From the UHGV virus genome UHGV-0219389: a stretch of 33,574 nt of DNA, one strand, 5' to 3'. The DNA is from a virus. This document shows, one piece after another, positions 4,453 to 33,195 of the stretch. The stretch's first letter is position 1; each line of letters begins with the position of its first letter. The position numbers and the translations under genes were made by a program. The notes beneath the pieces were generated by a model, which saw only the letters and a list, made by a program, of their open reading frames with translations, had not been told where the DNA came from and did no database searches.

Positions 4453-5568
4453 ATGTCAGCCATTCACATTTTTAAAGCCGGTACTCATACCGATATGCAC
4501 GGCAAAAAACTGCCGTTCACGCCAGACGATCTTGCCGCCTGCGTGAAAGCCTATGACCCGTCCGTCCATGAAGCACCACTCGTGATTGGTCATCCCAGAA
4601 CGGAAGACCCGGCGTGGGGCTGGGTGAAAGCCCTGTCGCTCAGCGGCGTCGATCTGATGGCAGAGCCTGCCCAGCTGGACCCGCAGTTTGCTGAGATGGT
4701 CACCGACGGACGATTCAAAAAAGTGTCCGCCTCTTTCTACCTCCCGGATTCACCGTCCAATCCGAAGCCCGGCGTGCTCTACCTTCGCCATGTGGGCTTT
4801 CTCGGGGCACAGCCACCTTCCGTCAAGGGGCTGAAACAGGTGTCCTTCAGTGAGCAGGAAGAAGGTGTGGTGGAGTTCGCCGACTGGCAGGCCATCACGA
4901 ATGCCTCCCTGTGGGGAAAGCTGCGCGATTTTCTGATCGCCCGCTTCAGTCTGGACGAGGCAGAAAAAGTCCTGCCGGAATGGCAGCTCAACAGTCTGCG
5001 CGAAGAGGCGTACCGCGACACACTGTCGCAGGATGCAGCAGGTGCACAATTCAGTGAGACAGGCCCGGGGCCGTCTTCCGCAAGTAACGAGGAATCATCG
5101 ATGACAAAAGAAGAGATTGAAGCCCTTCAGGAGGAGAACCGCCGCCTGAAGCAGCAGGCTGCTGATCGCGATGCGCGTGATGCACAGGTCAGACAGGAGC
5201 AACTGCATAAGGACAATGTGGCCTTTGCAGAAAAACTGGTCGCAGAGGGCCGTCTGGCTCCCCGCGCCTCCTCCGTGGTGGTTGCCCTGCTGGATGCCGT
5301 CGCCGGTGGCGACAAGCCGGTGGAGTTTGCTGAGGGGGAAAGCCGCACACCGCTGGCCACCGCCTTCCGTTCATTGCTCTCCGACGGGGAGCCGGTGATG
5401 AATTTCGCCGAACAGGCCACAAAAGAGCGTGTCGGCGACACGGTGAAGGTGGATGTGGCAGAGTTTGCGGAAGCCGATCCTGAGCGTCTGGCCCTGCATC
5501 AGAAAGCAGTGGCCCTGTCCAAAAAAGAAGGCATCAGCTATGAGGCTGCTGTCGCACGCTGCCTGTAA
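4453..5568 (+). CDS. head maturation protease/scaffold (Mu I-like)
   Basis: 371-aa ORF between G-like and major capsid genes; Glu/Ala/Arg-rich coiled-coil-like C-terminal half typical of scaffold. Confidence 0.65.
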   Translation: MSAIHIFKAGTHTDMHGKKLPFTPDDLAACVKAYDPSVHEAPLVIGHPRTEDPAWGWVKALSLSGVDLMAEPAQLDPQFAEMVTDGRFKKVSASFYLPDSPSNPKPGVLYLRHVGFLGAQPPSVKGLKQVSFSEQEEGVVEFADWQAITNASLWGKLRDFLIARFSLDEAEKVLPEWQLNSLREEAYRDTLSQDAAGAQFSETGPGPSSASNEESSMTKEEIEALQEENRRLKQQAADRDARDAQVRQEQLHKDNVAFAEKLVAEGRLAPRASSVVVALLDAVAGGDKPVEFAEGESRTPLATAFRSLLSDGEPVMNFAEQATKERVGDTVKVDVAEFAEADPERLALHQKAVALSKKEGISYEAAVARCL

Positions 5569-7796: not shown

Positions 7797-8047
7797 TGAA
7801 AGAATACCGCTATTCCGGCCCGGCCAGCGGCGTCACGCTGTCGGACGGAACCGAAATCCTGCTCTGGCCGGGGAAGACGGTTTCCCTGCCGGAGGAGCAT
7901 GACTACGTGAAGGTACTGGTGGCGCTGAAACATCTGACGCCGGTACCTGAAGAGACTAAACCCGCCGGCACACCGGCTGTGCAGTCACCAAAGCGCAGAA
8001 GCAGCAGTGACAGCGAAGTGAAAACGGAGGACACCCATGGCAGCTAA
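7796..8047 (+). CDS. hypothetical protein
   Basis: Small ORF coupled between the gp37-like and sheath genes. Confidence 0.4.
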   Translation: MKEYRYSGPASGVTLSDGTEILLWPGKTVSLPEEHDYVKVLVALKHLTPVPEETKPAGTPAVQSPKRRSSSDSEVKTEDTHGS

Positions 8048-9464
8048 CTATCTGCATGGTCCCGAAACCATTGAGGTGGAAAACGGTGCCCGCCCGGTTA
8101 AAACGGTGAAATCTGCCGTTATTGGCCTGATTGGTACCGCCCCGATGGGGGATGTCAATACGCTGGTACAGTGCCTGTCTGAGAAAGACGCAGCGGCATT
8201 TGGCAGCCAGTTCACCGGCTTTACCATTCCGCAGGCGCTGGATGCGATTTATGACCATGGTGCAGGTACCGTTCTGGTCATTAACGTCCTCGACCCGGCG
8301 AAACATAAAACGGCGATCGAGGATGAGGTGGTTACCTTTGACAAATCGACAGGGCAGGCCAGACTGGCGCATCCGGTTGTCGCTAATGTGGTGGTGAAAA
8401 ACAGTGAAGGCAGCACCTCCCACACGGCGAACACGGACTACCGTGTTGATGCGCAGGCGGGTGTGCTCACGAACCTGGGCAAGGCTATTGAGGCCGGTGG
8501 CAGCGTGAAGGTGAGCTATGAGTACGCGGACCCGTCGAAGGTGACTGCGGCGGACATCATCGGCGGGGTGAACAGCGCCGGAAACCGAACCGGCATGAAG
8601 CTGCTTAACGACAGCTTCAACCTGTACGGCTATTTCGCCAAAATTCTGATTGCGCCGGTGTTCTGCACCCAGAAGAGTGTCGCAGTTGAGCTTATCGCCA
8701 TGGCAGAGAAGCTGGGCGCGGTAACCTACATTGATGCGCCTGTCGGTACCACCTTTGCACAGGCTCTGGCAGGTCGTGGCCCGGAAGGCACCATCAACTT
8801 CAATACCAGCTCCGACCGCGTCCGTCTGTGCTATCCGCATGTGAAGGTATATGACCCGGTGACAAACACAGAGCGTCTGGAGCCGCTCAGCCAGCGTGCA
8901 GCAGGTCTGCGTGCCAGAGTCGATCTGGACAAGGGCTACTGGTGGTCATCCTCCAATCAGGAGATTCTGGGGATCACCGGCGTGGAGCGCCAGCTGTCCG
9001 CGATGATTGATGACCCGCAGAGTGAGGTGAACCTGCTTAACGAACAGGGGATCACCACGGTATTCAGCAGTTACGGCAGCGGCCTTCGTCTGTGGGGTAA
9101 CCGGACGGCAGCATGGCCAACGGTCACCCATATGCGTAACTTTGAGAACGTTCGCCGCACCGGTGATGTGATCAACGAGTCCATTCGTTATTTCAGCCAG
9201 CAGTACATCGACATGCCGATTACTCAGGCGCTGATTGATGCACTGACGGAGTCGGTCAACGCCTACGGTCGCAAAATGACTGGTGATGGTGCGGTACTGG
9301 GCTTCCGTTGCTGGTTTGATCCGGCCCGCAATCCGGAGACGGAGCTGGCCGCCGGGCACCTGTTGCTGAGCTACAAATATACGCCACCACCGCCGCTGGA
9401 GCGACTGACGTTTGAGACTGAGATCACCTCGGAATACCTGTTAACCCTGAAAGGGGGCAACTGA
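8037..9464 (+). CDS. contractile tail sheath protein
   Basis: 475-aa ORF directly before the tube gene; size and position typical. Confidence 0.8.
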   Translation: MAANYLHGPETIEVENGARPVKTVKSAVIGLIGTAPMGDVNTLVQCLSEKDAAAFGSQFTGFTIPQALDAIYDHGAGTVLVINVLDPAKHKTAIEDEVVTFDKSTGQARLAHPVVANVVVKNSEGSTSHTANTDYRVDAQAGVLTNLGKAIEAGGSVKVSYEYADPSKVTAADIIGGVNSAGNRTGMKLLNDSFNLYGYFAKILIAPVFCTQKSVAVELIAMAEKLGAVTYIDAPVGTTFAQALAGRGPEGTINFNTSSDRVRLCYPHVKVYDPVTNTERLEPLSQRAAGLRARVDLDKGYWWSSSNQEILGITGVERQLSAMIDDPQSEVNLLNEQGITTVFSSYGSGLRLWGNRTAAWPTVTHMRNFENVRRTGDVINESIRYFSQQYIDMPITQALIDALTESVNAYGRKMTGDGAVLGFRCWFDPARNPETELAAGHLLLSYKYTPPPPLERLTFETEITSEYLLTLKGGN

Positions 9465-9985
9465 TGTCAAAGATTGAGATAAACCGCATCACGAATGCCA
9501 ACATCTATCTGGATGGTACTAACCTGCTGGGACGGGCTGAGGAAGTTAAACTCCCCGATGTCTCCATGATTATGCAGGAACACAAGGCGCTGGGGATGGT
9601 GGGTAAGGTGGAACTCCCGGCTGGTTTTGACAAACTGGAAGGCGAAATCAAATGGAACAGCTTTTACCGCGATGCGATGCTGTCTGCCGCGAACCCGTAC
9701 AGGTCGCTGGCACTGCAGTGTCGTTCCAGCGTCCAGCGCTACAGCTCGCAGGGGCTGATTGACGAAATCCCGCTGGTCACCTTCCTGACGATTATGTTCA
9801 AGAAGAACCCGCTGGGGACGTTCAAACAGCACGAGAACGCCGAGTTCTCCAGTAGCTTCACCTGCACGTATATCAGACAGGTACTGGATGGTGAAGAGCT
9901 GCTGCAACTGGACTATCTGGCCAACATCTTCCGGGTCGGCGGTGTTGATCAACTGACTGACTACCGTATCAATATCGGGGGCTGA
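9464..9985 (+). CDS. tail tube protein
   Basis: 173-aa ORF with start overlapping the sheath stop. Confidence 0.75.
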   Translation: MSKIEINRITNANIYLDGTNLLGRAEEVKLPDVSMIMQEHKALGMVGKVELPAGFDKLEGEIKWNSFYRDAMLSAANPYRSLALQCRSSVQRYSSQGLIDEIPLVTFLTIMFKKNPLGTFKQHENAEFSSSFTCTYIRQVLDGEELLQLDYLANIFRVGGVDQLTDYRINIGG

Positions 9986-10366: not shown

Positions 10367-10702
10367 ATGTCACAGACCCCATCCGATACTTTTAAATTGT
10401 CTTATCCCTTCACCACTGCTGCAGGTACCAGAATTGAGCTGGTTGAACTGAAACGCCTGACGGTAAAAGACCTGAAGCAGGTGCGCAAAATCAGCAAAAA
10501 CCCGGCAGACTGGGACGAACCGCTGATTGCCCGCAGTACTGGTCTTCTCCCGGAAGATCTCGACAATATGGATCTGGCTGATTACCTGCAGTTACAGAAA
10601 CGATTTCAGCTCATCACGGGGATGGGTGAGAGCAACCAGGGCGCTGACGCAGGCGCAGGGGCTGCTGGCGAGATGGTTCCGGTTTCAGCCGGGGGAGATT
10701 GA
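10367..10702 (+). CDS. tail assembly chaperone (E/G-like)
   Basis: 111-aa ORF between tube and tape measure; acidic Gly/Ala-rich C-terminus. Confidence 0.55.
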   Translation: MSQTPSDTFKLSYPFTTAAGTRIELVELKRLTVKDLKQVRKISKNPADWDEPLIARSTGLLPEDLDNMDLADYLQLQKRFQLITGMGESNQGADAGAGAAGEMVPVSAGGD

Positions 10703-10784
10703 TGCCCTCGATACTGACGATCTGGAGATGTGGCTGGAGCAGGCTGAAGAGCAAATAAAAAGCGAGTACGGCGACAAATCATAG
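10527..10784 (+). CDS. alternative-frame extension of the tail chaperone (E'/GT-like), reached by frameshift
   Basis: ORF overlapping the last 176 nt of the chaperone in the +1 (equivalently -2) frame and running 82 nt past its stop. Confidence 0.4.
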   Translation: MPAVLVFSRKISTIWIWLITCSYRNDFSSSRGWVRATRALTQAQGLLARWFRFQPGEIDALDTDDLEMWLEQAEEQIKSEYGDKS

Positions 10785-10859: not shown

Positions 10860-13811
10860 ATGTCGGGACAGTTTTCAGTCGGCGTTGTTATCGGCGGGAT
10901 GATTGGCAGCACATTCCGTTCTGCAATGAGCGGTACCCGCCGTGCGCTTGATTCCCTGAGCGATACCTCACGCCGCCTGCAGGAACGTCAGAACGCTTTA
11001 ACCCGTGCAACAGAACGTTATGGTCAACTGGGTTCTTCCCGGATGCAGCATCTCAACAGCGAGCTGCTGCGGGTAAGCCGCACCATGGAGCAAATTGAGC
11101 GCCAGCAGCGCCGTCTGTCAGCGGCATCCGCTACCAGTGATGCGCTGAAAGCTAACCGCATGGCGCTGTATGGTCAGGGGATTGAAGCGTATGGCATGGC
11201 ACAGACTGTTTATCATACGGTTTCCCCTGCCGTTCAGCAGTCCATGTCTTTTCAGGACAAAATGATTGATATGTCGATCACCGCAAAATATGACAATAAA
11301 ACGCGGGATGCACTTGCCGGACAGATAAAAGGCTGGGCGCTTAAATACAATCAGTATCAGGATGAGCTGCAGGAGGCGGTGGGTTCACTCATCAGCGACA
11401 ATATTGATAATGTGTCAGATATCGGTTTTCTGATGCCGGATATTGCCCGCGCGGCAACGGCAACACGCACGTCTGCTCAGGACTGGGCAAAAGTGGCCGC
11501 AGTCTGGCAAAACTCCCTGAAAGGTGCGGCCAGAGATTTTGGTGCCGTTCAGAATATTATGGCTTATGCCGGTGACCAGGGGTCATTTGAAATCCCGGAT
11601 CAGGTCAAGTGGATGCAGTCCCTGGCCCCAATGATGGCGGGTATTGCCAGTGGAAAAGAGGCTGTTGCTGAAATCGGGGCCAGTCTCCAGATAGCAAAAA
11701 TCGGTGCAGGTTCCACCGACGAAGCAGCCAATAATTTTAAAAACTTTCTTACCAAAATTTTTGCCCGCGATACTCAGAAACAGTTTGCTGATCTGGGTAT
11801 TGATTTGCAGGGATCTATTGCGAGTTATAAAGCTGCGGGGATCTCTCCGATTGAAGGGATGTTGAGTGTTATAGAACGTTACCTCAATGCCAAAAGCCCC
11901 GAAGCGCTGGCCGGCTTCAAATCAGCCATGAAAATAAAGAATGATACGGCAAGAGATGAGGCACTTCAGGCTCTGGCGAAAAACTTTGGTCTGGGCGATA
12001 TGTTCGCGGATATGCAGGTCATGGCATTTATCCGCCCGATGCTGGCCAACATGGACAGATATCGAGAGATCCGTGCCGGTGCTCTCAGGGCTGCGGATAA
12101 CGATTTGCTTGCCAGTGCTTATGATCAGCGGCTGAAATCTCCCCTTGAAGCCACTAAAACACTTATGGTCAGCAGTCGCGATCTGGCAATTACGCTGGGC
12201 GATCAATTAGCTCCATCTTTTATTTCTTTGACTCAGGAACTGCTTCCACTCATTCAGGGGGCAAAACACTGGGTAGCGACTCACCCGCAATTTGTCAGTG
12301 GGGCTTTTAAGCTCATCAGTGCGCTCCTTGCGATTAAGATAGCGACTGTTGGTCTCAAACTGGGGCTGAATCTCCTTATTTCCCCCTTTGTAAGTGTCTG
12401 GAAAAATGCTGTTTTACTTCGGGCCAACTGGCTTCGTCTGTCGCTCGCACTGGGGCAAGGCGGTAAGCTCCGCTGGCTGGTGACCGGATTTAGCGCCGTC
12501 GCCAGAGGAGCCAGAACACTGAGTGGCGTGCTCTCCGGGGGGCTGGTTCGCGGAATTATGCTCGCCGGACGTGCTGTTCTCTGGATTGGACGTGCGCTGA
12601 TGATGAATCCCATCGGTCTCGTTATCACCGCTGTCGCGGCAGCAGCTTACCTTATCTACCGCAACTGGGGGGCAGTCAGTGGCTGGTTTAAACAGCGCTG
12701 GGCAGACATTCAGGAAGCCTTTAACGGCGGCATTGTGGGAATTGGTAAGTTACTGATTAACTGGTCGCCGGCAGGCCTGCTCTATAAAGCCTTTGCGGCT
12801 GCGCTGAAATATTTCGGCGTTGCTCTGCCGGCAAAGTTCACCGACTTCGGTGGCCATCTTATCGACGGTCTGATTAACGGTATCAAAAACAAATGGGGGT
12901 CGCTCAAATCCAGTGTAACCGGAATGGGTGACAGCATCAGTAGCTGGTTTAAACAGTGCTGGGCTGACATTCAGGAAGCCTTTAACGGCGGTATCGCGGG
13001 AACTGGTAAGCTGCTGATTAACTGGTCGCCGGCAGGTCTGCTCTGTAAAGCCTTTGCAGCTGCGCTGAAATATCTTGGTGTTGATCTGCCGGCAAAGTTT
13101 ACCGACTTCGGTGGCCATCTTGTCGATGGTCTGATTAACGGTATCAAAAACAAATGGGAGTCGCTCAAATCCAGTGTAACCGGAATGGGTGACAGCATCA
13201 GTGGCTGGTTCAGCGAAAAGCTGGGCATTCATTCGCCGAGCCGCGTGTTTATGGGCTTTGGTGACAATATCGCGCAGGGGGCCGCCATTGGCCTGCAGCG
13301 GACCACTCCGCTTGCAGCTCTGGCCGGGCAGCGAATGGCCAGTGAACTGCTCCCCAGAATGCCCGTGAGCATTCAGGGGCCAGAAATACGGGATAACACT
13401 TCAGGTGTTCGCTTCAGTATGCCGTTGCCCGATATCAATGGGTTTATGTCGTCTGCTAAAAATGCGATCGGAGCCGTAATCAATAGTTTGTCTTCCATGC
13501 CCGCTATTCCGCTCTCCACCCGGGCATCGATTTTACCAGGGCAACGTCTGGCAAATGAGATGACACCGGATGTTCCCCGTATCCCCTCGCCTGAAATCCT
13601 GGCTGCCGGATATTCAGGCCGTGGTGCAACTGCAACCGGCGGTGGAACGTCTGGTGGTATCCAGGTCAGCTTTAATCCTCAGTTTTTCCTCAATGGCAGG
13701 GAAACCACAGCGCCTGCAGGACTGACTGGTGCCCTGAATATGAGTCTGCATGAGCTGGAAAAAATGCTGGAGCGTCTGCTGGCTCAGAAACAACGTAAGG
13801 AGTACCGCTGA
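10860..13811 (+). CDS. tail tape measure protein
   Basis: 983-aa ORF, coiled-coil-like N-terminus, hydrophobic central segments, internal tandem duplication. Confidence 0.85.
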   Translation: MSGQFSVGVVIGGMIGSTFRSAMSGTRRALDSLSDTSRRLQERQNALTRATERYGQLGSSRMQHLNSELLRVSRTMEQIERQQRRLSAASATSDALKANRMALYGQGIEAYGMAQTVYHTVSPAVQQSMSFQDKMIDMSITAKYDNKTRDALAGQIKGWALKYNQYQDELQEAVGSLISDNIDNVSDIGFLMPDIARAATATRTSAQDWAKVAAVWQNSLKGAARDFGAVQNIMAYAGDQGSFEIPDQVKWMQSLAPMMAGIASGKEAVAEIGASLQIAKIGAGSTDEAANNFKNFLTKIFARDTQKQFADLGIDLQGSIASYKAAGISPIEGMLSVIERYLNAKSPEALAGFKSAMKIKNDTARDEALQALAKNFGLGDMFADMQVMAFIRPMLANMDRYREIRAGALRAADNDLLASAYDQRLKSPLEATKTLMVSSRDLAITLGDQLAPSFISLTQELLPLIQGAKHWVATHPQFVSGAFKLISALLAIKIATVGLKLGLNLLISPFVSVWKNAVLLRANWLRLSLALGQGGKLRWLVTGFSAVARGARTLSGVLSGGLVRGIMLAGRAVLWIGRALMMNPIGLVITAVAAAAYLIYRNWGAVSGWFKQRWADIQEAFNGGIVGIGKLLINWSPAGLLYKAFAAALKYFGVALPAKFTDFGGHLIDGLINGIKNKWGSLKSSVTGMGDSISSWFKQCWADIQEAFNGGIAGTGKLLINWSPAGLLCKAFAAALKYLGVDLPAKFTDFGGHLVDGLINGIKNKWESLKSSVTGMGDSISGWFSEKLGIHSPSRVFMGFGDNIAQGAAIGLQRTTPLAALAGQRMASELLPRMPVSIQGPEIRDNTSGVRFSMPLPDINGFMSSAKNAIGAVINSLSSMPAIPLSTRASILPGQRLANEMTPDVPRIPSPEILAAGYSGRGATATGGGTSGGIQVSFNPQFFLNGRETTAPAGLTGALNMSLHELEKMLERLLAQKQRKEYR
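12682..13203. repeat. intragenic tandem duplication, 2 x 261 bp (87 aa), in the tape measure gene
   Basis: Near-identical protein units WFKQ(R/C)WADIQEAFNGG...VTGMGDSIS repeated head to tail. Confidence 0.85.
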
Positions 13812-14695
13812 TGTTTGCCGTACTGGGTGATATTGAGTTTGAGCTGATTACCTACTGGGACGGCTTCGAGGCCACGTTCGGCGTCGATTATGCGGAGCAT
13901 GCCCGCATCGGGGGTAAGCCTGGCCTGCAGTTCGTCGGCGACAGGCTGGACGAAATCCAGATAAGTCTGGTCTTCCATCAGCATTATTGTGTACCCGATG
14001 TGGAGCTGGCGAGACTGCGAACAACCATGAAAGCCCATCAGGCACTGGCGCTGGTCTTCGGCAACGGTGACTATCGTGGCTGGTTCGTGATTACCGATGT
14101 GACCGCAACCAGCGAGCAGACAGACAGCACCGGTAACGTGCTGGCTGTCAGTGCCACCGTGTCTCTCCGGGAATACACCGGTGATCCGAAAAATCCTCTG
14201 CAACCACCGGCAATACGCACGAAGCTCCCGGGTGTCGGGGCGGTCTCCGGTGCCATTCCTTCGCCTTCCGGGGTGGCGCAGTTCATCCGCAACGGCGTCA
14301 ACTATGCGAAACAGGCGCAGTCTGTACTCCAGACCACTATCAGCGCCGTTCGGGTGACACAGAAAATGAAGGATAACCCCGTTGTCGCACTGACCCGTGT
14401 GCCGGGGCTGATGAGCGGACTGGGTAATATCTCCGGGGCTCTGGGGAAAAGTGTTCCGGCGTTTAACGCACTCTCTGAATCCATGCCCGATGCCATCAGT
14501 CTGGCCAGAACAGCCAGCGAAGCAGCCACGTATGTACAGCAGGCACAGTCTGCGCTGAGTGGTGTGGACAAAAGAAATATTGCAGGTGCTCTGGATACCG
14601 TTTCCGGGCAGCTTAACGCCGCCGGCACAGCATTCAACCGCATGTCTCCGGGATTAAGTGCAATGGCCGCCAGAATACTGACGAGGAGTGTGTGA
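13811..14695 (+). CDS. DNA circularization protein N-like (Mu gp43 position)
   Basis: 294-aa ORF overlapping the tape measure stop. Confidence 0.5.
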   Translation: MFAVLGDIEFELITYWDGFEATFGVDYAEHARIGGKPGLQFVGDRLDEIQISLVFHQHYCVPDVELARLRTTMKAHQALALVFGNGDYRGWFVITDVTATSEQTDSTGNVLAVSATVSLREYTGDPKNPLQPPAIRTKLPGVGAVSGAIPSPSGVAQFIRNGVNYAKQAQSVLQTTISAVRVTQKMKDNPVVALTRVPGLMSGLGNISGALGKSVPAFNALSESMPDAISLARTASEAATYVQQAQSALSGVDKRNIAGALDTVSGQLNAAGTAFNRMSPGLSAMAARILTRSV

Positions 14696-14907
14696 TGTTT
14701 CTTGAACATGTTACCCGTGACGGAGAGCGCTGGGATTCGCTGGCATGGCAGTACTACGGTGACCCGCTGGGCTATCCCCGGATTATTGCCGCCAATCCGC
14801 ACGTGGCCATCACGCCGGTGCTGCCCTCCGGGCTGTTGTTACTGATCCCGGTGATTGAGGCTGAAGAAGCCCGTACAGAAGAGGATATTGCCCCATGGCT
14901 GAGATAA
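14692..14907 (+). CDS. tail protein X-like (LysM-like)
   Basis: 71-aa ORF with motif pattern W..L..YYG..........I..ANP typical of phage tail protein X. Confidence 0.55.
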   Translation: MMFLEHVTRDGERWDSLAWQYYGDPLGYPRIIAANPHVAITPVLPSGLLLLIPVIEAEEARTEEDIAPWLR

Positions 14908-16049
14908 ACAGCACTGCGCAAGTCACATCAGCGTTAACCGGCGTCAGCGATGTGCTGACACCGGTGTTCACTCTGTGGTATCTGCAGAAAAACATCACCT
15001 CTGATATCGCGCCTTATGTCACCCGTGTGACCTGGAGCGATAACATCAAAAATGAGTCCGATACCATTGAGGTGGAGCTGGACGACACCGATGGCCGCTG
15101 GCTGGATAAGTGGTATCCGGGCAAGGGTGACACGCTGACGCTGAAAATGGGCTATCAGGGCGAGAAGCTGCTGTCCTGCGGTACGTTCTCTATAGACGAG
15201 ATCGAAGTGAGTTCGCCCGCTTCCGTTGTTTCTATCCGTGGGGTGGCCACCTCGGTTAACAGTGCCCTGCGGACTAAAACCAGTCGTGGTTTTGAGAACA
15301 CCACGCTGGCAGCTGTTGCGGGGCGGATTGCCAGAAAGCACCGGCTGAAACTGGTGGGCAGCATTGAGTCCATCAGAATCGACCGGGTGACCCAGTATGC
15401 TGAAACCGACGTGGGTTTTCTGCGCCGGCTGGCCAGCGAGTATGGTTATGCAGTGAAAGTGGTCAGTGACCAGCTGATTTTTTCTCATCTGGCCACACTG
15501 CGCAGTCAGGAGCCGGTCAGGCAGTTAAAACCGCAGGATGTGGCCCGCTTTTCCCTGCGTGACACCATCAACCGGGTCTATAAATCTGCAAAGGTAAAAC
15601 ACCAGAAAAGCAGCAGTAAAAAACTGATCGTCTACGAAGCTGATGGTGGTACCCGTGAAAGCGACAAAAAGCTCAAAGGTGGTAAGGTTACCAGCGCTGA
15701 CTCACTTAAAGTTAACAGCCGCGTCAGCGACCCGGACAGTGCCCGGATTAAAGCGGATTCAGCACTGGCCAGACATAACGAATACCAGCAGAACGGCTCC
15801 CTGACGCTGACGGGAACACCTCAACTGACAGCAGGCAACAAAATTGAACTGGTGGGTTTTGGGCAGTTATCCGGGCCATGGCTCATAACCACTGCCCGCC
15901 ATGCGTTTGACCGTAACAGCGGCTACACCACAGAGCTGGAAGTGGCACGGGGGCCAGTCACAAGAGGGAAAAAACAAAAAACTCAGAAACTCACGGTTTA
16001 TCACCCGGATGGCAGTACATCGACGGTGATTAAGGAGAAGAAAAAATGA
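14895..16049 (+). CDS. baseplate hub / late control D-like protein (Mu P-like)
   Basis: 384-aa ORF in the expected position; size matches. Confidence 0.7.
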   Translation: MAEINSTAQVTSALTGVSDVLTPVFTLWYLQKNITSDIAPYVTRVTWSDNIKNESDTIEVELDDTDGRWLDKWYPGKGDTLTLKMGYQGEKLLSCGTFSIDEIEVSSPASVVSIRGVATSVNSALRTKTSRGFENTTLAAVAGRIARKHRLKLVGSIESIRIDRVTQYAETDVGFLRRLASEYGYAVKVVSDQLIFSHLATLRSQEPVRQLKPQDVARFSLRDTINRVYKSAKVKHQKSSSKKLIVYEADGGTRESDKKLKGGKVTSADSLKVNSRVSDPDSARIKADSALARHNEYQQNGSLTLTGTPQLTAGNKIELVGFGQLSGPWLITTARHAFDRNSGYTTELEVARGPVTRGKKQKTQKLTVYHPDGSTSTVIKEKKK

Positions 16050-18138: not shown

Positions 18139-18709
18139 GCCATTACAACTCCCGCCACCGCTTGAGGGTGATACCAGTCTCAGGACGCTGGGAAGACTGG
18201 CAGGGCGGCTGGATAACATCGACCTGAGCGTACTGATGGTCTTTCTCGTCGATATCGTCGACAGTTCTGCGCTGCCATGGCTGTGCGAGCAGTTCTCACT
18301 GTCTGGCGATGGCTGGGAGCTGGCGGAATCGGACGATGTTCGCCGCATGCTTATAAAAGCAGCCATCGAACTGCACCGGTATAAAGGGACGCCGTGGTCA
18401 ATCCGGGAAGTTATCCGCCGTTTTGGCTTTGGTGAAGTGGATCTGATTGAAGGCACAGGTCGTCTCAGTTACGACGGCAATCGCAGCTATAACGGACTGT
18501 TTGTTCATGGAGATGCAGCCGCCTGGGCGGTTTATTGCGTTATTCTGAAACAGCCCATTACTAACGATCAGGCCGCGATGCTGCGTCAGACGCTCGCTGC
18601 ATTTGCACCGGCCCGCTGCCATCTGGCCAGCCTGGAGTATCAGTCTGTGGCCATTCGCTATAACAATACCGCCATCCATGATGGCAGTTATAACCACGGG
18701 AGCAGTTGA
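18131..18709 (+). CDS. tail protein (P2 gpI / Mu gp48-like)
   Basis: ATG at 18131 in frame with track ORF 18119..18709. Confidence 0.6.
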   Translation: MAEPLQLPPPLEGDTSLRTLGRLAGRLDNIDLSVLMVFLVDIVDSSALPWLCEQFSLSGDGWELAESDDVRRMLIKAAIELHRYKGTPWSIREVIRRFGFGEVDLIEGTGRLSYDGNRSYNGLFVHGDAAAWAVYCVILKQPITNDQAAMLRQTLAAFAPARCHLASLEYQSVAIRYNNTAIHDGSYNHGSS

Positions 18710-18711
18710 TT

Positions 18712-19875
18712 ATGGGAAACCTGAATGAAACAGAAAAGTGGGAAGAAAATATCTATCAACTGGAGACATCAGATCCGGTTCTGGGTGGTGCTGACGGGAT
18801 ATCAAATCGAGCCCCCCGGCAACTGGCAAACAGGACGAAATGGCTGAAGAAAAAAACGGAGGAAGCCGCACAGTCACTGGCTGAACACGTACGTTCCCGT
18901 AACCACCCGGACGCGACACTGACAGCTAAGGGGTTCACCCAACTGAGCAGTGCCACCAACAGCACCTCTGAAACGCTGGCCGCCACACCAAAAGCCGTCA
19001 AGGCTGCATACGACCTTGCAGCCGGCAAGGCGCCCGTCAGCCACACTCACCCGTGGAGTCAGATAACGGGAGTGCCTGCTGCCTCGCTGACGGCAAAAGG
19101 CACCGTACAACTGAGCAGCGCCATCAACAGCACGTCTGAAACGCTGGCCGCCACACCGAAAGCGGTCAAGGCTGCATACGATCTGGCAAACGGAAAACAA
19201 CCGGCAGATGCCACGCTCACTGCTCTGGCAGGACTTGCCACTGCAGCAGATCGGTTGCCTTATTTTACCGGAGCAGACCGCGCAGCGCTGGCAACCCTTA
19301 CAGCTATTGGTCGCGCTATTATCGCTAAGGGCAGTATAAAAGATGTCCTCAATTACCTTGGTTTGGGGGAAGGCTCTGCATTGCCTGTTGGTGTACCGGT
19401 TCCGTGGCCCACCGCCACACCGCCAGCAGGCTGGTTAAAGTGCGACGGGCGCGCCTTTACAAAAGAACAATATCCTGTTCTGGCCAGAGTCTACCCGACC
19501 CTCCGTCTTCCCGATTTACGCGGTGAGTTTATCCGTGGATGGGACGACGGGCGCAAAGTTGATACAGGACGTAAGTTGCTGTCCGCACAAGGGGCAACGC
19601 TGTTAAGAACAGCAATGCTGGATTATTATAACCAGGACACTACGGGAACCTCGGGGATAGTCGGCATGGGATTCAACAATGAAGATTCCATTACAGACCT
19701 TCGTGAGGGCAGCTTTAAAATGCCGGACGGGACAACATTCAGCGATCCTGTCATGGCAATGTCAGACAATGGTATGCAGGCTACTATTCTGACCTCTATC
19801 AGAAGCGGGTATGCGAAGGGTATCACTGTCAGACCCCGTAGCATTGCACTTAATTACATTGTGAGGGCAGTTTAA
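18712..19875 (+). CDS. tail fiber protein (constant N-part plus invertible C-terminal variant Sv)
   Basis: ATG at 18712; internal repeats TAKG(F/T)xQLSSA(T/I)NSTSETLAATPKAVKAAYDLA; C-terminal part from about 19360 lies in the invertible segment. Confidence 0.8.
   Translation: MGNLNETEKWEENIYQLETSDPVLGGADGISNRAPRQLANRTKWLKKKTEEAAQSLAEHVRSRNHPDATLTAKGFTQLSSATNSTSETLAATPKAVKAAYDLAAGKAPVSHTHPWSQITGVPAASLTAKGTVQLSSAINSTSETLAATPKAVKAAYDLANGKQPADATLTALAGLATAADRLPYFTGADRAALATLTAIGRAIIAKGSIKDVLNYLGLGEGSALPVGVPVPWPTATPPAGWLKCDGRAFTKEQYPVLARVYPTLRLPDLRGEFIRGWDDGRKVDTGRKLLSAQGATLLRTAMLDYYNQDTTGTSGIVGMGFNNEDSITDLREGSFKMPDGTTFSDPVMAMSDNGMQATILTSIRSGYAKGITVRPRSIALNYIVRAV
18921..19200. repeat. intragenic tail-fiber repeat, 2 copies about 168 bp apart
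   Basis: Duplicated 30-aa motif in the fiber shaft. Confidence 0.7.
19346..19371. other. gix-like crossover site, left (tcctcaattacc-TT-GGTTTGGGGGAA)
   Basis: 26-bp site with inner half-site matching the Hin/Gin/Cin half-site pattern GGTTTnnnnnAA; central TT. Confidence 0.55.
19358..19437. repeat. 80-bp perfect inverted repeat, left copy
   Basis: Reverse complement identical to 20883..20962; encodes the shared peptide GLGEGSALPVGVPVPWPTATPPAGWL. Confidence 0.9.
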
Positions 19876-20489
19876 TGAGTAACACTGCAGTTCTGGATGA
19901 AAACGGTATCGCCACTGTAGCGGGCGATATCACTGTATATCACTATGACGAGGAAACCCGGGAATACACCTCATCCTCTGTGGAGTATCTCGCCCTTGGG
20001 GTGGGTACTCCGGCACATTCGTGCGCCGATGCACCGCCGGAGGCAATTTCGGGTTACGTGGTTTGCCGGACTGCCACGCTGAACGGGTGGGAGCATGTGC
20101 CTGATCACCGCGGCGAGACGGTATACAGCACGGAGAACGGTAACCCCGTTCTGATTACCCAACCGGGTGATTACCCGGCGGACACCACCACAAAACAGCC
20201 TGCCACACCATGGGATACCTGGAACGGTGAAGCGTGGGTAACTGATACTGAACGGCATAGAGCCGCAGAGCTGGAGACTGCCAGACTGCAACGCCAGAAA
20301 CGGGTGGATCAGGCGATGAAGTCCATCGACCTCATCAACCTCAAACTGCGGGCAGGTCGCAGTCTGAAACCAGAAGAAACGGCAAAACTGAACGCCGTGC
20401 TGGATTATATCGACGAGCTGAACGCACTGGATATCAGCAAGGCACCTGAAATCAGCTGGCCGGAAGCGCCACTGGCGCTTGCCGGCTGA
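19875..20489 (+). CDS. tail fiber assembly protein (Tfa/U-like)
   Basis: 204-aa ORF, start overlapping the fiber stop. Confidence 0.75.
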   Translation: MSNTAVLDENGIATVAGDITVYHYDEETREYTSSSVEYLALGVGTPAHSCADAPPEAISGYVVCRTATLNGWEHVPDHRGETVYSTENGNPVLITQPGDYPADTTTKQPATPWDTWNGEAWVTDTERHRAAELETARLQRQKRVDQAMKSIDLINLKLRAGRSLKPEETAKLNAVLDYIDELNALDISKAPEISWPEAPLALAG

Positions 20490-20495: not shown

Positions 20496-20962
20496 TCACG
20501 CCGCCCTCACGATATAGTTAAATGCGATATTGCGGGGGCGAGCTGATACATAAGCCCACCAGTCATATCTTTGTGCACCTTTAGAGGATGCATCAAATAT
20601 CCACTTTTTGCCATTTATGACCCCCAGTTGATTAGAGGTTAAAGCGTCACCAAATCCGTATTGTGTAGAGCCGAGCGAACTGATATCTCCGGTATCATTA
20701 TCATCAAAACCGGATACGATAGTCCCTTCCTGAAATGAAAGTAGCGCACGCCCGGTATCAACCTTGCGACCACCGTCCCATCCACGGATAAACTCACCGC
20801 GCAAATCGGGAAGACGGAGGGTCGGGTAGACTCTGGCCAGAACAGGATATTGTTCTTTGGTGAACGTAGCTCCGTTGCACTGTAACCAGCCTGCTGGCGG
20901 TGTGGCGGTGGGCCACGGAACCGGTACACCAACAGGCAATGCAGAGCCTTCCCCCAAACCAA
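20496..20962 (-). CDS. alternative tail fiber C-terminal segment (Sv'), promoterless
   Basis: Minus-strand frame whose N-terminal 26 aa equal residues of the + strand fiber at the inverted repeat, then diverges; both variants end ...NYIVRA. Confidence 0.7.
20883..20962. repeat. 80-bp perfect inverted repeat, right copy
   Basis: Reverse complement identical to 19358..19437. Confidence 0.9.
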
Positions 20963-20974
20963 CGTTTATCTCTC
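20949..20974. other. gix-like crossover site, right (TTCCCCCAAACC-AA-cgtttatctctc)
   Basis: Inner half-site TTCCCCCAAACC matches the invertase half-site pattern; central AA is the reverse complement of the left-site TT. Confidence 0.55.
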
Positions 20975-21029
20975 AAATCCTCCCCACATTATCTCAGTAC
21001 TTTAACCACTCAAAAGGGAGTATTTTTAA

Positions 21030-21601
21030 TGCTGATTGGCTACATACGTGTGTCAACAAATGACCAAAACACAGATTTGCAACGCAAAGCATTAATGTGC
21101 GCAGGATGTGAACAGATTTTTGAGGACAAAATGAGCGGAACCAAGTCGGAACGTCCAGGCCTGAAACGCGCTTTAAAGTGCCTTAAAAGAGGGGATACAT
21201 TGGTGGTCTGGAAGCTGGATCGGTTGGGTAGAAGAATGAAACACCTCATTGCTCTCACAGAAGAGCTACGCGCAAAAGGTGTCAATTTTCGCAGTCTGAC
21301 GGATTCAATCGATACCAGCACTCCGATGGGAAGGTTCTTTTTTCATATGATGGGTGCACTGGCAGAAATGGAGCGTGAACTGATAGTTGAGCGCACGCTG
21401 GCAGGACTGGCTGCTGCGCGAGCACAAGGGAGAGTTGGAGGACGTCGCCCGAAACTGACGAAGGAGCAGCATGAGCAGATCGCAAGATTGCTCCAGAAAG
21501 GGTATGACAGAAAGCGGCTGGCAATTATCTATGATATTGGACTGTCAACGATCTACCGCTACCACCCTGTTGGGACTGTCATAACGCAACCTGAAATGTA
21601 A
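21030..21601 (+). CDS. gin: DNA invertase (Gin/Pin/Cin/Hin family serine recombinase)
   Basis: N-terminal MLIGYIRVSTNDQNTDLQ catalytic-serine motif and C-terminal HTH; start at ATG 21030 inside track ORF 20900..21601. Confidence 0.85.
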
Positions 21602-21741: not shown

Positions 21742-22167
21742 TTAAAACGGTATTCCGTCCCCGTACGGATCATCGTGCTGGCCTGTCTGTTGTTTTGCCC
21801 TGTTCAGTGCGTCAGTAGCCTGGCCCTGCTGGCCTTTTTTGCCGCCCGGTCGCGCCGTTCGCGCACTGATTACGCTGTCTGCGATGACCTGCCAGCCCTG
21901 CCGCGTTTCGCCGTTCTGGCCTGTCCACTGGCTTACCTGCATGTTACCCGCCACGCTCACCAGTTCGCCTTTCTGGTGTTTTGCCAGTGCGTCGGCCTGT
22001 CTGCCAAACGCCAGGACGGATAACCACATCGTCGCCGTTCCGTCATCTGCCTGGCTGCATGGCAGGGGAACCGCCATACTCGCCATCGCCATTTGTGTTC
22101 CCTTGCTGGTGGTCTTTAACTGCGGGTCAGCCACCAGCCGCCCGTAAGCCGCTATCTGTGCTGTCAT
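21742..22167 (-). CDS. SSB-like single-stranded DNA-binding protein
   Basis: 141 aa with Gly/Gln-rich linker and C-terminal acidic tail ending DGIPF, as in SSB (DDDIPF). Confidence 0.55.
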   Translation of the reverse strand: MTAQIAAYGRLVADPQLKTTSKGTQMAMASMAVPLPCSQADDGTATMWLSVLAFGRQADALAKHQKGELVSVAGNMQVSQWTGQNGETRQGWQVIADSVISARTARPGGKKGQQGQATDALNRAKQQTGQHDDPYGDGIPF

Positions 22168-22227: not shown

Positions 22228-22376
22228 TTCTGCGGGTTATAATCGCACTTTTGCGGGTTATAACTGCCGTTTTGCGGGTTATTTTGGGTATTTTACGGGT
22301 TACGATTTTCCTGCCATTCCTTTAATAATCATATGGATACTGATTTATCCACAGAAATAACCCGCATAACCCGCAA
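22228..22376. repeat. iteron array (candidate replication origin)
   Basis: Four direct copies of (T)TTTGCGGGTTAT spaced exactly 21 bp (22231, 22252, 22273, 22294), an AT-rich spacer, then two inverted copies ATAACCCGCA (22357, 22366). Confidence 0.7.
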
Positions 22377-27688: not shown

Positions 27689-27910
27689 TCAGGGTTTCCA
27701 TTCACCCTTTACCCATTCCAGCACCTCAGATAAGCGCCAGACTTTTGTTTGTGGGCCAATACATATTTTTCGTGGAAATTTTCCTTCCTTTTCAAGTAAC
27801 GATCTGTGTCTCCTGCCAAGAGCGGTTAACCATGCACATTCATCTTCCTTAATCATCCTGTCGATTGTTTTATCATTTTCAAGTTCTTCACGCGTAACTA
27901 TTTGAATCAT
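27689..27910 (-). CDS. excisionase/AlpA-like HTH protein
   Basis: Small ORF overlapping the integrase 3' end; AlpA-like pattern (ECAWLTALGRRHRSLLEKEGKFP). Confidence 0.5.
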   Translation of the reverse strand: MIQIVTREELENDKTIDRMIKEDECAWLTALGRRHRSLLEKEGKFPRKICIGPQTKVWRLSEVLEWVKGEWKP

Positions 27911-29111: not shown

Positions 29112-29116
29112 GTGAT

Positions 29117-30310
29117 TTATAACCCGTTTTTGCAATACACAGTGCAATACACAAATGATGAAAACAGCCAGAACCTTCCAGAAAAAACAAAAACGACGAA
29201 CAAGAAAAAATCTTTTTCTTTCATTTGGTTACTAAAAAAATCAGGACAGGTCGCACTGTTGTTACGGCGTGATGTTACTTTCTTGGTAAAAAAATTCACC
29301 CGCGCAGAGACCTGCTCCTTCGCTTTTTTCGCCAGACGACGCAGATCATCCCAGCGTTTACAGATGCCCAGGCCAGGATTCGCTTTCTGCCAGACCGTTT
29401 CATCAAACGGATCATCTCCCTCATCAAGCGTGTAAATGATCGCAAAGTAAGAGTCGTCTTTTACAGCGCCCTCCACGTCGCTGTTATAGCCTCGCAATAC
29501 CTTGATGGCGTAATCACGCTGCTCGTAACAAATCCCTTCCTTGTTAAAGCCAGCCGTGGTGATACCAAATAACAGGGACTGCAGACGGGCACCGGTTGCC
29601 GTTTCCAGAACGTCCCACACGTCGCGGGTTTTATGTGCATGCAGCTCATCAATAATGGCGCAGTGGATGTTCAGACCGTCCAGGTTGTTTGCATCCGAGG
29701 AAAGCGGTTCAAATTTTGATGCGCTCTGCTCCTGGTAAATCGCCAGCTTGTTGAAATCAAACAACCGCCCGAGTGTCGACCGGGCTTTTCTGACCATATT
29801 TTTGGCGTCTTCAAACACGATTCTGGCCTGGTCAAGCGTGGTTGCGGCTGAATACACCTCAGCTCCGCCTTCACTATCTGCCCCCGTCATATACAGACCG
29901 ATACCCGATGACAGGGTTGATTTTGCGTTTTTACGGGCAACTTCGTTGTATGCTGTCCGGAACCGGCGCACCATCACCGGGCGTCCACTGCCATCGCTGC
30001 GCATGACAACTTCCCCGGTTTCTTCATTCACCAGCGGAATGACAAAACCAAAAATATTAATGAGGATAAACACATGCCAGTCCATCAACTCAATGGGCTG
30101 ACCTGCCAGCGCCCCTTTCACATGGGGTACAAATTTGTAGAAATTAAGGATGTGCTGTGCACGAGGTTCACTGAAATAAATCCCCCGCTCTTCGCCGTAC
30201 TTCAGATCATCAAGAAAACGCTGGCAGGCCAGACGGACAAATTCGCCAGCAACAATTTCTCCTGCAACAACACGTTCGGCGTAGCGGATCCCGTCAGCCA
30301 CTTTTGCCAT
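29117..30310 (-). pseudogene. terminase large subunit, 3'-truncated (ATPase domain only)
   Basis: terL-like sequence through about residue 340 (..WQKANPGLG..), then low-complexity tail from AT-rich DNA abutting the integrase start. Confidence 0.65.
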
Positions 30311-30792
30311 CAGTCTCTCGCTTTTAAAAGCTCTGCCAGCGGATCAACATCATCCGGTCCGGCGGTATTTACTTTCGCCCGGCTTGCCGGTGACATACCA
30401 AACTCTGCAAGCATCGCCCGAATCCGCTTCCAGGCATCAGCCTTCATCGCAGCAGCCGGGTGTGCCTTGATCAGCACATCGCCATTCTGCGTTTTCGTGC
30501 GGTAGGTATAACCCTCAACATCGAGTATTTCGCAGTGATGCCGGTATTCGGTGTAGGCTTCCACCAGTAACTCGAGCGCACGTGCATCGAGCTGAGAAAT
30601 GATCCCTTCCGCATTCAGCTCTTCCGCCATTCGCCTGAACCAGTACTTCCCCTGCGCCCCTAAATGTTGCGGAATTTTAGGGAGACCTTTTTCATCCTTT
30701 TTAGCGGTTTTTTTGAGGTCTTTAACTGGCCGCTTTGAGGGGTTGCCTCGTATCAAATGCAGGCGTGGCGGGATTTTCGGGGGTCCAGACAT
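30310..30792 (-). CDS. terminase small subunit (P27-family-like)
   Basis: 160-aa ORF with stop overlapping the terL start; position between HNH and terL. Confidence 0.65.
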   Translation of the reverse strand: MSGPPKIPPRLHLIRGNPSKRPVKDLKKTAKKDEKGLPKIPQHLGAQGKYWFRRMAEELNAEGIISQLDARALELLVEAYTEYRHHCEILDVEGYTYRTKTQNGDVLIKAHPAAAMKADAWKRIRAMLAEFGMSPASRAKVNTAGPDDVDPLAELLKARD

Positions 30793-30939
30793 AATCGGTT
30801 TTACCTATCAATCATTTAATCACATTCCAAAAAAAAGTTTTCGAACCTGCGGCGATGCGAGGAAAGGTCAGGCGGCGGTACTGAGCAGCCAGGGTTGCAG
30901 AGATTTGACCTGCCCCTCCCCTACAGATGGGAACTGTTA

Positions 30940-31290
30940 TCAATTGATGCGTTCGCGCGCTGTTTTTGCTTTATGACAGGGCCAGCACAGACTCTGCAGG
31001 TTACTGTCTGCATCCGTGCCACCATGAGCTTTCGGAATGATGTGGTCCACAGTTCTGGCTTCAACGGCTCTCCCATTGCGCAGGCAGTTCTGACACAGAT
31101 GATTATCACGCTTCAGTATGCGCGCACGTATGGCATCCCATTTCGAGCCATAGCCACGCTGGTGGCGGCTCAGTCCGCGTTGATGCTGTACCCATCCTTC
31201 GCCACGATGTTTATCGCAGTAACCAGAACTGTCTGTGGTTGTACCTGCACATCCACGCTTACGGCAGGCGCGTGGGATTCGTGGGGGCAT
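30940..31290 (-). CDS. HNH endonuclease
   Basis: Motif CQNCLRNGR...DHIIPKAHGG...NLQSLCWPCH; start at ATG 31290 (MPPRIP) with GGAG RBS. Confidence 0.8.
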   Translation of the reverse strand: MPPRIPRACRKRGCAGTTTDSSGYCDKHRGEGWVQHQRGLSRHQRGYGSKWDAIRARILKRDNHLCQNCLRNGRAVEARTVDHIIPKAHGGTDADSNLQSLCWPCHKAKTARERIN

Positions 31291-31410
31291 ATGTACTCCA
31301 ATGAAGAAGCCACCGACATAGCCTCCTCCATTCATAGTGAAACTATTTTCATCTACCCAGTAATGAATTCTTTGTAGAGTTGTGATCAATACAACTCACT
31401 AATGGAGAGG

Positions 31411-31445
31411 CTTGTCCAACACGTTGGACAAGTTTCCTGTTTGAT
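31411..31445 (+). terminator. 10-bp inverted repeat (CTTGTCCAAC-ac-GTTGGACAAG) followed by a T-rich run
   Basis: Perfect arms at 31411-31432, then tttcctgtttgattt. Confidence 0.35.
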
Positions 31446-32109: not shown

Positions 32110-32140
32110 TTGCATGAGTTGCCCATCGATATGGGCAGCT

Positions 32141-32602
32141 CTATCTGCACTGCTCATTAATATACTTCTGGGTTCCTTCCAGTTGTTTTTGCATAGTGAT
32201 CAGCCTCTCTCTGAGGGTGAAATAATCCCGTTCAGCGGTGTCTGCCAGTCGGGGGCTGGTTGCATTATCCACGCCGGAGGCGGTGGTGGCTTCACGCACT
32301 GACTGACAGACTGCTTTGATGTGCAACCGACGACGACCAGCGGCAACATCAGCGCGCAGAGTTTCATTTTCAGCTTTCGCATTGGCTAATTCTCTCGAGT
32401 ACTTTGCATCGAGTGCAGCAACATCACGCTGACGCTGCTGCATGTCAGCGATGGTGGCGATCGCCTGCTTCAGCTCACTGACTTTTTTATCACGCTGTTC
32501 TTTGTAGGCGATGGCGTTATCACGGTAATGATTGACCGCCCACGACAGGCAGACGATGATGCAGATAACCAAAGCATAAATAATCGCGGCGACTCTGCTC
32601 AC
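32141..32602 (-). CDS. Rz: i-spanin Rz
   Basis: N-terminal transmembrane segment and coiled-coil periplasmic domain, near-identical to lambda Rz as remembered; probable GTG start at 32602 overlapping the endolysin stop. Confidence 0.8.
32200..32382 (-). CDS. Rz1: o-spanin Rz1 lipoprotein, embedded in Rz in the +1 frame
   Basis: 60 aa, lipobox VVGC, proline-rich KPPPPPAW, ends ..SPSERG, lying entirely inside Rz. Confidence 0.85.
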
Positions 32603-33132
32603 TGCTCTATCCCCCAACAGGCTAATGCGCTTTCCTGGTCACGACGAATAACCTGTCCATAGCAGTTATTTGAACGTATGCGGCAATCGCGCCCACCATC
32701 TTTTATCCACCAGCGAATCGCCTCGCATGCGCCCTTACGATCACCGGCATTCAGCCGCTTATAAAACGTCGACGGGAAACACTTACCGGGGCCAATGTTA
32801 TAGGGACAGAATGACGCTATACCCGCTTTTTGTGGTTCGGTCAGTGGTACTTTAATATTGCGCTCCACCCATGCCAGCGCCTTATCACGCTCAATGGCGT
32901 TGACCTGGTCGCATTTTTCCTTCGACAGTTTCATACCGGGAAAAACGGGTTTTCCATCCACCATCGTGGCACCCCGACAGATGGTCCAGATGCCGGACCC
33001 ATCGCGGTATGCCGTTGTGTGGTTACCTTCTTTTTCATCCAGAAACTGGTCGAGAATATCAGGCGCGGGCGCACCGACGGCAATCAGTGCCAGAACGGCA
33101 GCCGACAGGCCGTATCTGATTTTTGCGTTCAT
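32599..33132 (-). CDS. endolysin (lysozyme), SAR-type
   Basis: 177 aa with N-terminal weakly hydrophobic segment [16 protein letters not shown]; resembles prophage RrrQ/RrrD-type lysozymes from memory. Confidence 0.8.
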
Positions 33133-33195
33133 GGATATTTATCAGGATTTATCGGTTTCTGCCCACGGACAGGTTTATCTGTTCCGGTCAGTGAC

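Follow-up and report, generated by a model that had tools for sequence, protein, structure and literature searches.

A tandem repeat lies within the tail tape measure gene of the viral genome UHGV-0219389, an E. coli prophage whose analyzed stretch of 33,574 nucleotides (nt) is referred to throughout as the window. In this gene, a unit of 87 amino acids (aa), encoded by 261 base pairs (bp), stands twice, head to tail. We consider it likely that these two units, designated A and B, form an old in-frame array of variable copy number within a tape measure protein that belongs to a contractile tail of the P2 type, and that unequal crossover has generated a series of one-, two-, and three-unit alleles that would correspond to a series of tail lengths.

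The two-unit array in the tape measure gene

The gene and the repeat units are located as follows.

10860..13811, plus strand: tape measure protein gene, 983 aa (PF10145, PHROG tape-measure families, and gene context)
12678..12938, plus strand: unit A, the first 87-aa copy (aa 607-693), codon-aligned (repeat finder, offset comparison, and unit profile)
12939..13199, plus strand: unit B, the second 87-aa copy (aa 694-780), codon-aligned (repeat finder, offset comparison, and unit profile)
13198..13210, plus strand: 13-nt start of a third copy, TCAGTGGCTGGTT, recurring at 12676-12688 and 12937-12949; microhomology bounding the unit

The 983-aa open reading frame (ORF) is a genuine tape measure gene, as judged from its profile matches and from its position between a gpE-like chaperone gene and gpU/X/D. 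Its product matched PF10145 (PhageMin_Tail) at aa 159-340 (E 2e-20; 74 bits, compared with a cut-off of 33.2), as well as phrog_28 (E 6.5e-135), phrog_794, and more than 15 other tape-measure PHROGs. RefSeq homologs of this ORF carry the name 'phage tail tape measure protein'.

When the window was examined with Tandem Repeats Finder, a repeat with a period of 261, 2.0 copies, 92% matches, no indels, and a score of 930 was reported at 12676-13210. Base-by-base comparison at an offset of 261 showed that 12676-12949 matches 12937-13210, with background noise beyond both ends; the 261-bp unit is present 2.05 times across the interval. The reading frame remains intact through the array, given that 261 is divisible by 3 and that neither a stop nor a frameshift occurs. 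The two-unit array in the window is real, in frame, and far beyond chance. Both methods thus confirmed the initial annotation, in which a head-to-tail, in-frame duplication inside the tape measure gene had been reported, and the coordinates given there (12682-13203) delimit a valid in-phase pair of units. That annotation had also described the duplication as near-perfect, with a handful of substitutions, which proved to be an overstatement; units A and B differ at 20 of 261 nt (7.7%, with transitions predominating) and at 9 of 87 aa, corresponding to 92% identity. The diagnostic residues of unit A are G2, R7, V20, I22, Y36, F46, A49, I62, and G74. Residues S2, C7, A20, T22, L46, D49, V62, and E74 of unit B are common to the last unit of nearly all two- and three-copy alleles, and C36 of unit B is confined to a subset of alleles that includes the window.

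Alleles with one, two, or three units

The initial annotation had proposed that copy number be compared with the tape measure genes of related prophages, and this comparison revealed alleles with one, two, and three copies. Full-length proteins among the best 120 homologs fell into classes of 896 aa (27 clusters), 983 aa (43 clusters), and 1070 aa (17 clusters), in which the unit profile detected exactly 1, 2, and 3 units, respectively. All 43 clusters of exactly 983 aa had the A|B order found in the window. Moreover, in nearly all arrays the first unit was of the A type and the last of the B type. The middle unit of three-unit alleles was B-type in its left part and A-type in its right part; the single unit of most one-unit alleles was A-type in its left part and B-type in its right part.

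Chimeric units were also examined at the DNA level, by scoring the 20 sites that separate A from B in the window. The single unit of strain E30 (L002) gave the pattern AAAAAAAAAAABBBBBBBBB, and that of IPCEC48 (L010) gave AABBBBBBBBABBBBBBBBB. Among three-copy alleles, the middle unit was BBBBBBBABAAAAAAAAAAA in L003, L005, and L015, BABAAABABAAAAAAAAAAA in L012, and BABAAAAABAAAAAAAAAAA in L013 and L014; the middle units of L012, L013, and L014 share one common switch point, after the first diagnostic site. In total, four distinct DNA breakpoints were found across the chimeric units. L011 (Ecol_448) was left unscored, its gene being frameshifted in the record with the first stop at aa 631.

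Alleles were also grouped into clades by the 809 aa that flank the array. The clade of the window (8 or fewer differences) was found to contain one-, two-, and three-unit alleles together, and four further clades were also mixed. In each clade, the chimeric middle unit consisted of the left of that clade's own last unit and the right of its own first unit. Because the middle units are built from each clade's own units, at least five independent expansions, together with several independent contractions, are implied. One two-unit allele (P0076) resembles a contraction of the three-unit form of its clade. The chimeric single units and the chimeric middle units are the two reciprocal products expected when an unequal crossover pairs unit B of one molecule with unit A of a second. 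Hence alleles differing by whole units and reciprocal chimeras, the signs of a repeat that varies in copy number via unequal recombination, were both found. The differing breakpoints, combined with the occurrence of all copy states inside single clades, point to recurrent unequal homologous crossover as the probable source of the series.

Programmed variation, such as that produced by a diversity-generating retroelement, an inversion, or a shufflon, was also considered. No inverted repeats or recombinase sites were found at the array, the breakpoints are spread along the unit, and an Rfam scan of the window returned no matches. Apart from a tail-fibre invertase 7 kb downstream of the array, no site-specific system was seen in the window.

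To place the array in a population context, complete E. coli genomes were searched with an 80-nt query across the internal unit junction, which matches at full length only where two or more units adjoin. The internal junction was present in 572 of 5426 genomes, with 780 junctions overall. Of 60 genomes sampled at even spacing, 43 contained a single junction and 14 contained two; counts of three, four, and six junctions were found in one genome each. A wider query of 1201 nt matched 634 genomes. Extrapolation from evenly spaced samples, which yields approximate rather than exact counts, gave about 60 genomes with single-unit alleles only, about 400 with two-unit alleles, and on the order of 150 with three-unit alleles; many of the matching genomes are clonally related ST131 isolates. 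Arrays of more than three units were not seen, and each of the three genomes with 3-6 junctions that were inspected had a three-unit gene. Longer arrays were accordingly rejected as the source of the extra junctions, which must stem from additional prophages. The complete E. coli genomes H74, H82, and H90 (L013-L015) carry several prophages of the same family as that of the window, with 3, 4, or 6 internal junctions per chromosome. The presence of several such prophages in one cell provides opportunities for recombination between tape measure alleles.

Proposed mechanism and predicted tail length

In the explanation that we favor, the 13-nt microhomologies found at either border of the unit in single-copy alleles probably gave rise to the first duplication, after which A and B would have diverged under purifying selection. 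RecA-type unequal crossover between these 92%-identical units would then have converted 983-aa (two-unit) alleles into 1070-aa (three-unit) and 896-aa (one-unit) alleles, and the reverse, repeatedly. If, as we infer, the tape measure lines the tail tube and halts polymerization of both tube and sheath, phages with one, two, or three units would form a stepwise series of tail lengths.

During tail assembly, the tape measure is held by a chaperone pair and lines the growing tube, and polymerization ends where the tape measure ends. In contractile tails the ring rise is about 3.8-4.2 nm, such that one 87-aa unit would correspond to approximately three extra hexameric rings. By analogy with lambda, T4, and TP901-1, an increment of about 13 nm (about three tube and sheath rings) per unit can reasonably be inferred, and the 896-, 983-, and 1070-aa alleles would then have nominal rulers of about 134, 147, and 160 nm, respectively. 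The value of about 13 nm (87 aa x 0.15 nm) had already been calculated in the initial annotation, and the arithmetic agrees with the published rule of 0.15 nm per residue for tape measures (PMC9928086) and with TP901-1, in which 118 nm correspond to 810 length-determining residues and deletions shorten the tail linearly, by about 0.146 nm per residue (Mahony et al. 2016, PMC5099701).

Expandable tape measure repeats, histories of unit duplication and loss, and the length rule are already known (PMC3271669, PMC5099701). The tape measures of TP901-1 and the window appear alike in layout, with an N-terminal helical part, a hydrophobic region directly followed by a repeat region, and a C-terminal part (PMC5099701). 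However, TP901-1 is a siphovirus with 29 units of 11-/18-aa aromatic-marked repeats and engineered length variants (PMC5099701), whereas the window encodes a contractile P2-type tail with an 87-aa unit and natural one-, two-, and three-copy alleles. In the phages studied by Belcaid, Bergeron & Poisson in 2011 (PMC3271669), unit number varies among relatives, as it does here, and history was reconstructed from substitutions shared by paralogous and orthologous units, the same logic that we applied to the 20 diagnostic sites. The unit in those phages comprises 11 aa and forms long arrays (PMC3271669); here it comprises 87 aa (261 bp), and recombination chimeras are directly visible. A length of 261 bp suffices for ordinary homologous unequal crossover. 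The region in the window would act like the Belcaid and TP901-1 repeats as an expandable ruler segment, yet it falls outside that repeat class; aromatic autocorrelation in the family profile of the unit was 0.09 at lag 11, with the best value (0.16) at lag 21, and the 11-aa aromatic periodicity of the Belcaid type was absent. In-frame deletions or duplications in lambda gpH (Katsura & Hendrix 1984) and T4 gp29 (Abuladze et al. 1994) alter tail length proportionally, as cited in PMC13585406 and PMC9928086; the T4 gp29 case extends the length rule to a contractile tail, and the value of 0.15 nm per residue stems from these experiments. The lambda and T4 cases are laboratory constructs in tape measures unrelated in sequence to that of the window. 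What is specific here is the long 261-bp unit in a contractile-tail tape measure and the natural one-, two-, and three-unit series with visible reciprocal crossover products. Given that a 2026 survey found myovirus tape measures to be mostly without detectable tandem repeats (PMC13585406), such a series is useful for myoviruses. The natural 896-, 983-, and 1070-aa alleles, plus an 821-aa sister lineage, occur in otherwise nearly identical contractile-tail modules and are carried by sequenced, obtainable E. coli strains, such as NCTC9022 (three units). The series would thereby suit an engineering-free test of how an 87-residue increment of the ruler translates into whole tube and sheath rings.

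The 87-aa unit as a conserved module

Two further segments of the tape measure gene bear on the nature of the unit.

12285..12662, plus strand: hydrophobic, membrane-segment-like region (about aa 476-601), read from the translation; directly upstream of the array
13215..13316, plus strand: partial unit copy, old and diverged (aa 786-819, EKLGIHSPSRVFMGFGDNIAQGAAIGLQRTTPLA), corresponding to unit positions 44-76 (distant-homolog profile, domain independent E-value 1.9e-07)

When the 87-aa unit was searched against 1.84 billion cluster representatives, 577 proteins, mostly of 700-1500 aa, were found at E <= 0.001; these distant homologs are representatives of clusters at 50% identity. After profile iteration, 1-6 matched stretches were found per distant protein, most commonly 2. 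The partial copy at aa 786-819 corresponds to a widespread 'LGIHSPSRVF' motif region, and an extra half-unit after the last full unit was also present in most of the distant tape measure proteins. This trailing half-unit implies that the C-terminal third of tape measures in this family consists of nested repeat generations, the A/B pair of the window being the most recent. The consensus of the family reads SgFF.glW.eIK.AFsGGIgGI.aLIlNWSPLGLFYkAFAgVLswFGveLPakFTeFGgmiidGLvnGI... In the family profile, Gly/Pro breaks are conserved and the hydrophobic periodicity is 95-100 degrees, as in an amphipathic helix. The unit is thus a conserved module that probably forms amphipathic helices.

Several points weigh against our interpretation of the array as a ruler segment that varies by unequal crossover. 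Six one-copy clusters displayed the pattern AABBBBAA, which a single crossover of canonical A and B is insufficient to produce; these alleles need double events, gene conversion, or a retained, ancestral-like unit. When the full protein was modeled with AlphaFold2 from a 23-sequence alignment, the mean predicted local distance difference test score was 31.8 and the predicted template modeling score was 0.21, so that the mostly helical assignment is unreliable, and a PDB sequence search with the whole tape measure protein gave no match at E <= 0.01. With a low-confidence model and no solved homolog, 1.5 Å per residue is an assumption for the 87-aa module. A literature search on Escherichia phage PhiKM, the closest sequenced phage, returned papers on phiKMV-type and other unrelated phages and none on PhiKM itself; a search for a measured tail length of PhiKM or its relatives also returned none. 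Moreover, the tape measure gene is strongly mosaic: relative to the window, the ST131-type allele L004 has 62 differences in the 300 nt upstream of the array and 3 in the units. Recombination between prophages may therefore have helped to spread the array, and any date assigned to the duplication is less secure as a result. Finally, the motifs NWSPxGLxYKAF and FGGxxxDGLxNGI are strongly conserved in the unit family, which suggests that the unit is more than a spacer.

This last point also favors an alternative that we regard as unlikely, namely that the module is chiefly a functional domain (chaperone-binding, docking in the tube lumen, or membrane-active in DNA injection), with copy number reflecting dosage or activity and having little or no proportional effect on tail length. 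The conservation of the motifs over hundreds of distant tape measure clusters would be expected of such a domain, and the conserved Gly/Pro positions break helices. In addition, the unit follows the hydrophobic region, a part implicated in membrane passage in TP901-1 and HK97 (PMC5099701; Cumby 2015, as cited). However, in TP901-1 the tail was shortened proportionally both by deletions in the repeats and by deletions in the hydrophobic region next to them (PMC5099701), residues housed in the tube lumen must take up length, and the unit has the helical, amphipathic periodicity described above.

A more far-reaching version of the ruler interpretation is that the array serves as a naturally tunable ruler kept as a polymorphism, in which one- to three-unit variants arise continually by unequal crossover in lysogen populations and their tails, in steps of about 13 nm (three rings), are differently selected by the depth of the host surface. 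We consider this doubtful. If it were true, with surface depth set by capsule and O-antigen, this contractile-tailed prophage, which is common among extraintestinal pathogenic E. coli including ST131, could change its host range quickly through the evolution of tail length.

Age and origin of the array

The age of the array under the favored crossover explanation was assessed with outgroups. The sister lineage with an 821-aa tape measure, found in E. coli GABEEC10 and M-17, phage Phi06_2974 B, and Klebsiella phage KP12, contains a single unit. The units of these four single-copy outgroups lie equally far from A and from B, with 28-35 differences to each. At the 20 diagnostic sites, about half of the outgroup states were A and half were B, interleaved and with no single switch. 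This is the pattern expected of a state preceding the duplication, with approximately 10 substitutions on each copy since. When A and B were compared by the method of Nei and Gojobori, the synonymous divergence (dS) was 0.21 and the nonsynonymous divergence (dN) was 0.046 (dN/dS 0.22); dS to the single-copy outgroups was 0.41-0.59, about twice the A-B value. Purifying selection therefore acts on both copies, and, set against the diversification of the prophage family, the duplication is old.

The borders of the unit offer a candidate site for the first duplication. In the single-copy outgroup alleles, TCAGTAGCTGGTT is found at the start of the unit and TCAGTGACTGGTT just past it; the two are identical at 11 of 13 positions and lie 261 bp apart. 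It is plausible, judging from these borders, that this 13-nt microhomology, which encodes the protein motif S-x-W-F, was the site of a first, illegitimate duplication.

The N-terminal ~100 aa and the C-terminal ~500 aa of the 821-aa lineage are close to the window, but aa ~100-470 are only distantly similar. A second length polymorphism was also observed, close to the 3' end of the gene. A 213-bp (71-aa) segment at 13332-13544 (aa ~825-895) is missing from the 821-aa lineage, and its ends form an imperfect direct repeat, GGGCAGCGAATGGCCAGTGA compared with GGGCAACGTCTGGCAAATGA (GQRMASE and GQRLANE in the protein).

Another possible origin of the array, which we judge quite improbable, is that illegitimate recombination joined two already diverged single-copy alleles, for example those of co-resident prophages. 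The 7.7% divergence between A and B would then reflect how far the two alleles had diverged, not how long the array has existed. Genomes with several such prophages do exist (up to 6 junctions per genome), the mosaicism of the tape measure gene is strong, and single-copy alleles persist in the population, all of which are compatible with such a joining. However, among the 27 single-copy clusters no pure-A or pure-B allele was found, most being A-left/B-right chimeras or mosaics. The symmetry of A and B with respect to all four outgroup alleles also speaks for divergence after duplication, as that scenario predicts, but is not decisive.

The initial annotation had considered the duplication to be recent, which would mean that the tail of this particular prophage had just been lengthened. 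The units are indeed still 92% identical and stand head to tail without a spacer. Nonetheless, we find a recent event very hard to reconcile with the synonymous divergence between the copies, about half of that to the single-copy outgroups, with the assignment of about 10 of the 20 differences to each copy when polarized by the outgroups, and with the A-first/B-last arrangement in 572 complete genomes and several flank-defined clades, where it occurs even in alleles whose adjacent sequence is 20% diverged.

Assembly and annotation of the array

The initial annotation also raised the concern of an assembly artefact, by which one unit had been falsely expanded, or a longer array collapsed, to two; repeats of this size do break short-read assemblies, as seen in the PhiKM record, and with copy number varying among relatives a collapse from three to two is conceivable, but for the window we give this next to no credence, because the units are distinguishable at 20 positions and hence are not one unit read twice, independent complete genomes contain the 1201-bp region in one ungapped piece at 99.3-99.8% identity, 43 protein clusters have exactly the same length and A|B order, and the chimeric middle-unit signature is absent from the window.

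The repeat has caused two annotation problems in public records, in which three-unit genes appear as pseudogene fragments and a phage record contains a gap. In RefSeq (PGAP), intact 1070-aa, three-unit ORFs are annotated as pseudogenes at 1061-4273 of L003, 1061-4273 of L005, 2462-5674 of L015, and 1061-4273 of L012. In L003, L005, and L015 they are represented by two fragments labeled 'incomplete; partial in the middle of a contig', and in L012 by one truncated, 'incomplete' coding sequence (CDS). When the three-unit ORFs of L003, L005, and L012 were translated, each read through with no internal stop. In other genomes, the three-unit allele is annotated as intact. In the PhiKM record PQ738613 (L001), a gap of 100 N lies inside the array at 4915-5014, and the CDS is split and labeled 'disrupted by sequencing gap'.

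Mirror-image ORFs on the minus strand, noted in the initial annotation, were also present in the array.

12750..13232, minus strand: ORF of 160 aa spanning both units (ORF list); wholly within the tape measure gene
12971..13228, minus strand: ORF of 85 aa, repeat image of the 62-aa ORF
12782..12970, minus strand: ORF of 62 aa, repeat image of the 85-aa ORF

The 85-aa and 62-aa ORFs are shifted by about one repeat period relative to each other. These minus-strand ORFs are by-products of the repeat and are not considered genes.

The tail module and other features of the window

The genes surrounding the tape measure gene are as follows.

8037..9464, plus strand: tail sheath gene (PF04984/PF17482)
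9464..9985, plus strand: tail tube gene (PF04985)
10367..10702, plus strand: tail assembly chaperone gene, gpE-like (PF10109 Phage_TAC_7, E 5.5e-21)
within 10367..10784, plus strand: E'-frame ORF overlapping the gpE-like chaperone gene and reaching 10784
13811..14695: gpU, followed by X
14895..16049: gpD, after X

At the position equivalent to the chaperone, RefSeq lists a 'phage tail assembly protein' plus a 'GpE family phage tail protein'. Downstream of gpD, baseplate genes V, W, J, and I are followed by the tail fibre. This gene order is that of a P2-type contractile tail.

Escherichia phage PhiKM (PQ738613) is the closest sequenced phage, with 98.7% identity over 89% of window positions 1-22000. 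Its tail gene order is like that of the window, and its tape measure gene holds the array too. Prophages of this family occur in E. coli ST131 and in other lineages. PhiKM is filed under Bcepmuvirus, a label assigned by the submitter. Among the gene products of the window are a tyrosine integrase (27888-29147) and a DUF927 protein; a Mu-type transposase was not identified. 'Cartapus' of LF82, a P2/Fels2-like myovirus, was tried as the identity of the prophage and rejected, given that neither of the published primers matches the window with up to 3 mismatches allowed.

Downstream of the baseplate genes, inverted repeats of 229 nt that are 90% complementary lie at 19355-19583 and 20737-20965. 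They bracket a tail-fibre assembly gene and, on the opposite strand, an alternative tail-fibre C-terminus. The following genes belong to this locus.

18706..19875, plus strand
19875..20489, plus strand
20496..20957, minus strand
20900..21601, plus strand

A serine recombinase (PF00239 plus HTH_7) is encoded directly downstream of the inverted-repeat segment. This arrangement resembles the invertible tail-fibre segments known as the Mu G / P1 C type and would probably act as a host-range switch.

A second set of phage genes is found on the minus strand after the integrase.

29117..30310, minus strand: large terminase fragment
30310..30792, minus strand: small terminase
32141..32617, minus strand: Rz
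32599..33132, minus strand: lysozyme

The minus-strand genes at 27888-33574 suggest an adjacent or remnant second prophage. In addition, a 21-bp tandem repeat (TGCGGGTTATAACCGCACTTT; 2.5 copies, 87% matches) was found at 22231-22282, between an SSB-like gene (21742-22167, minus strand) and the gene for the 708-aa DUF927 protein (22404-24530, minus strand); this repeat could represent iterons or operator-like sites at a replication module.

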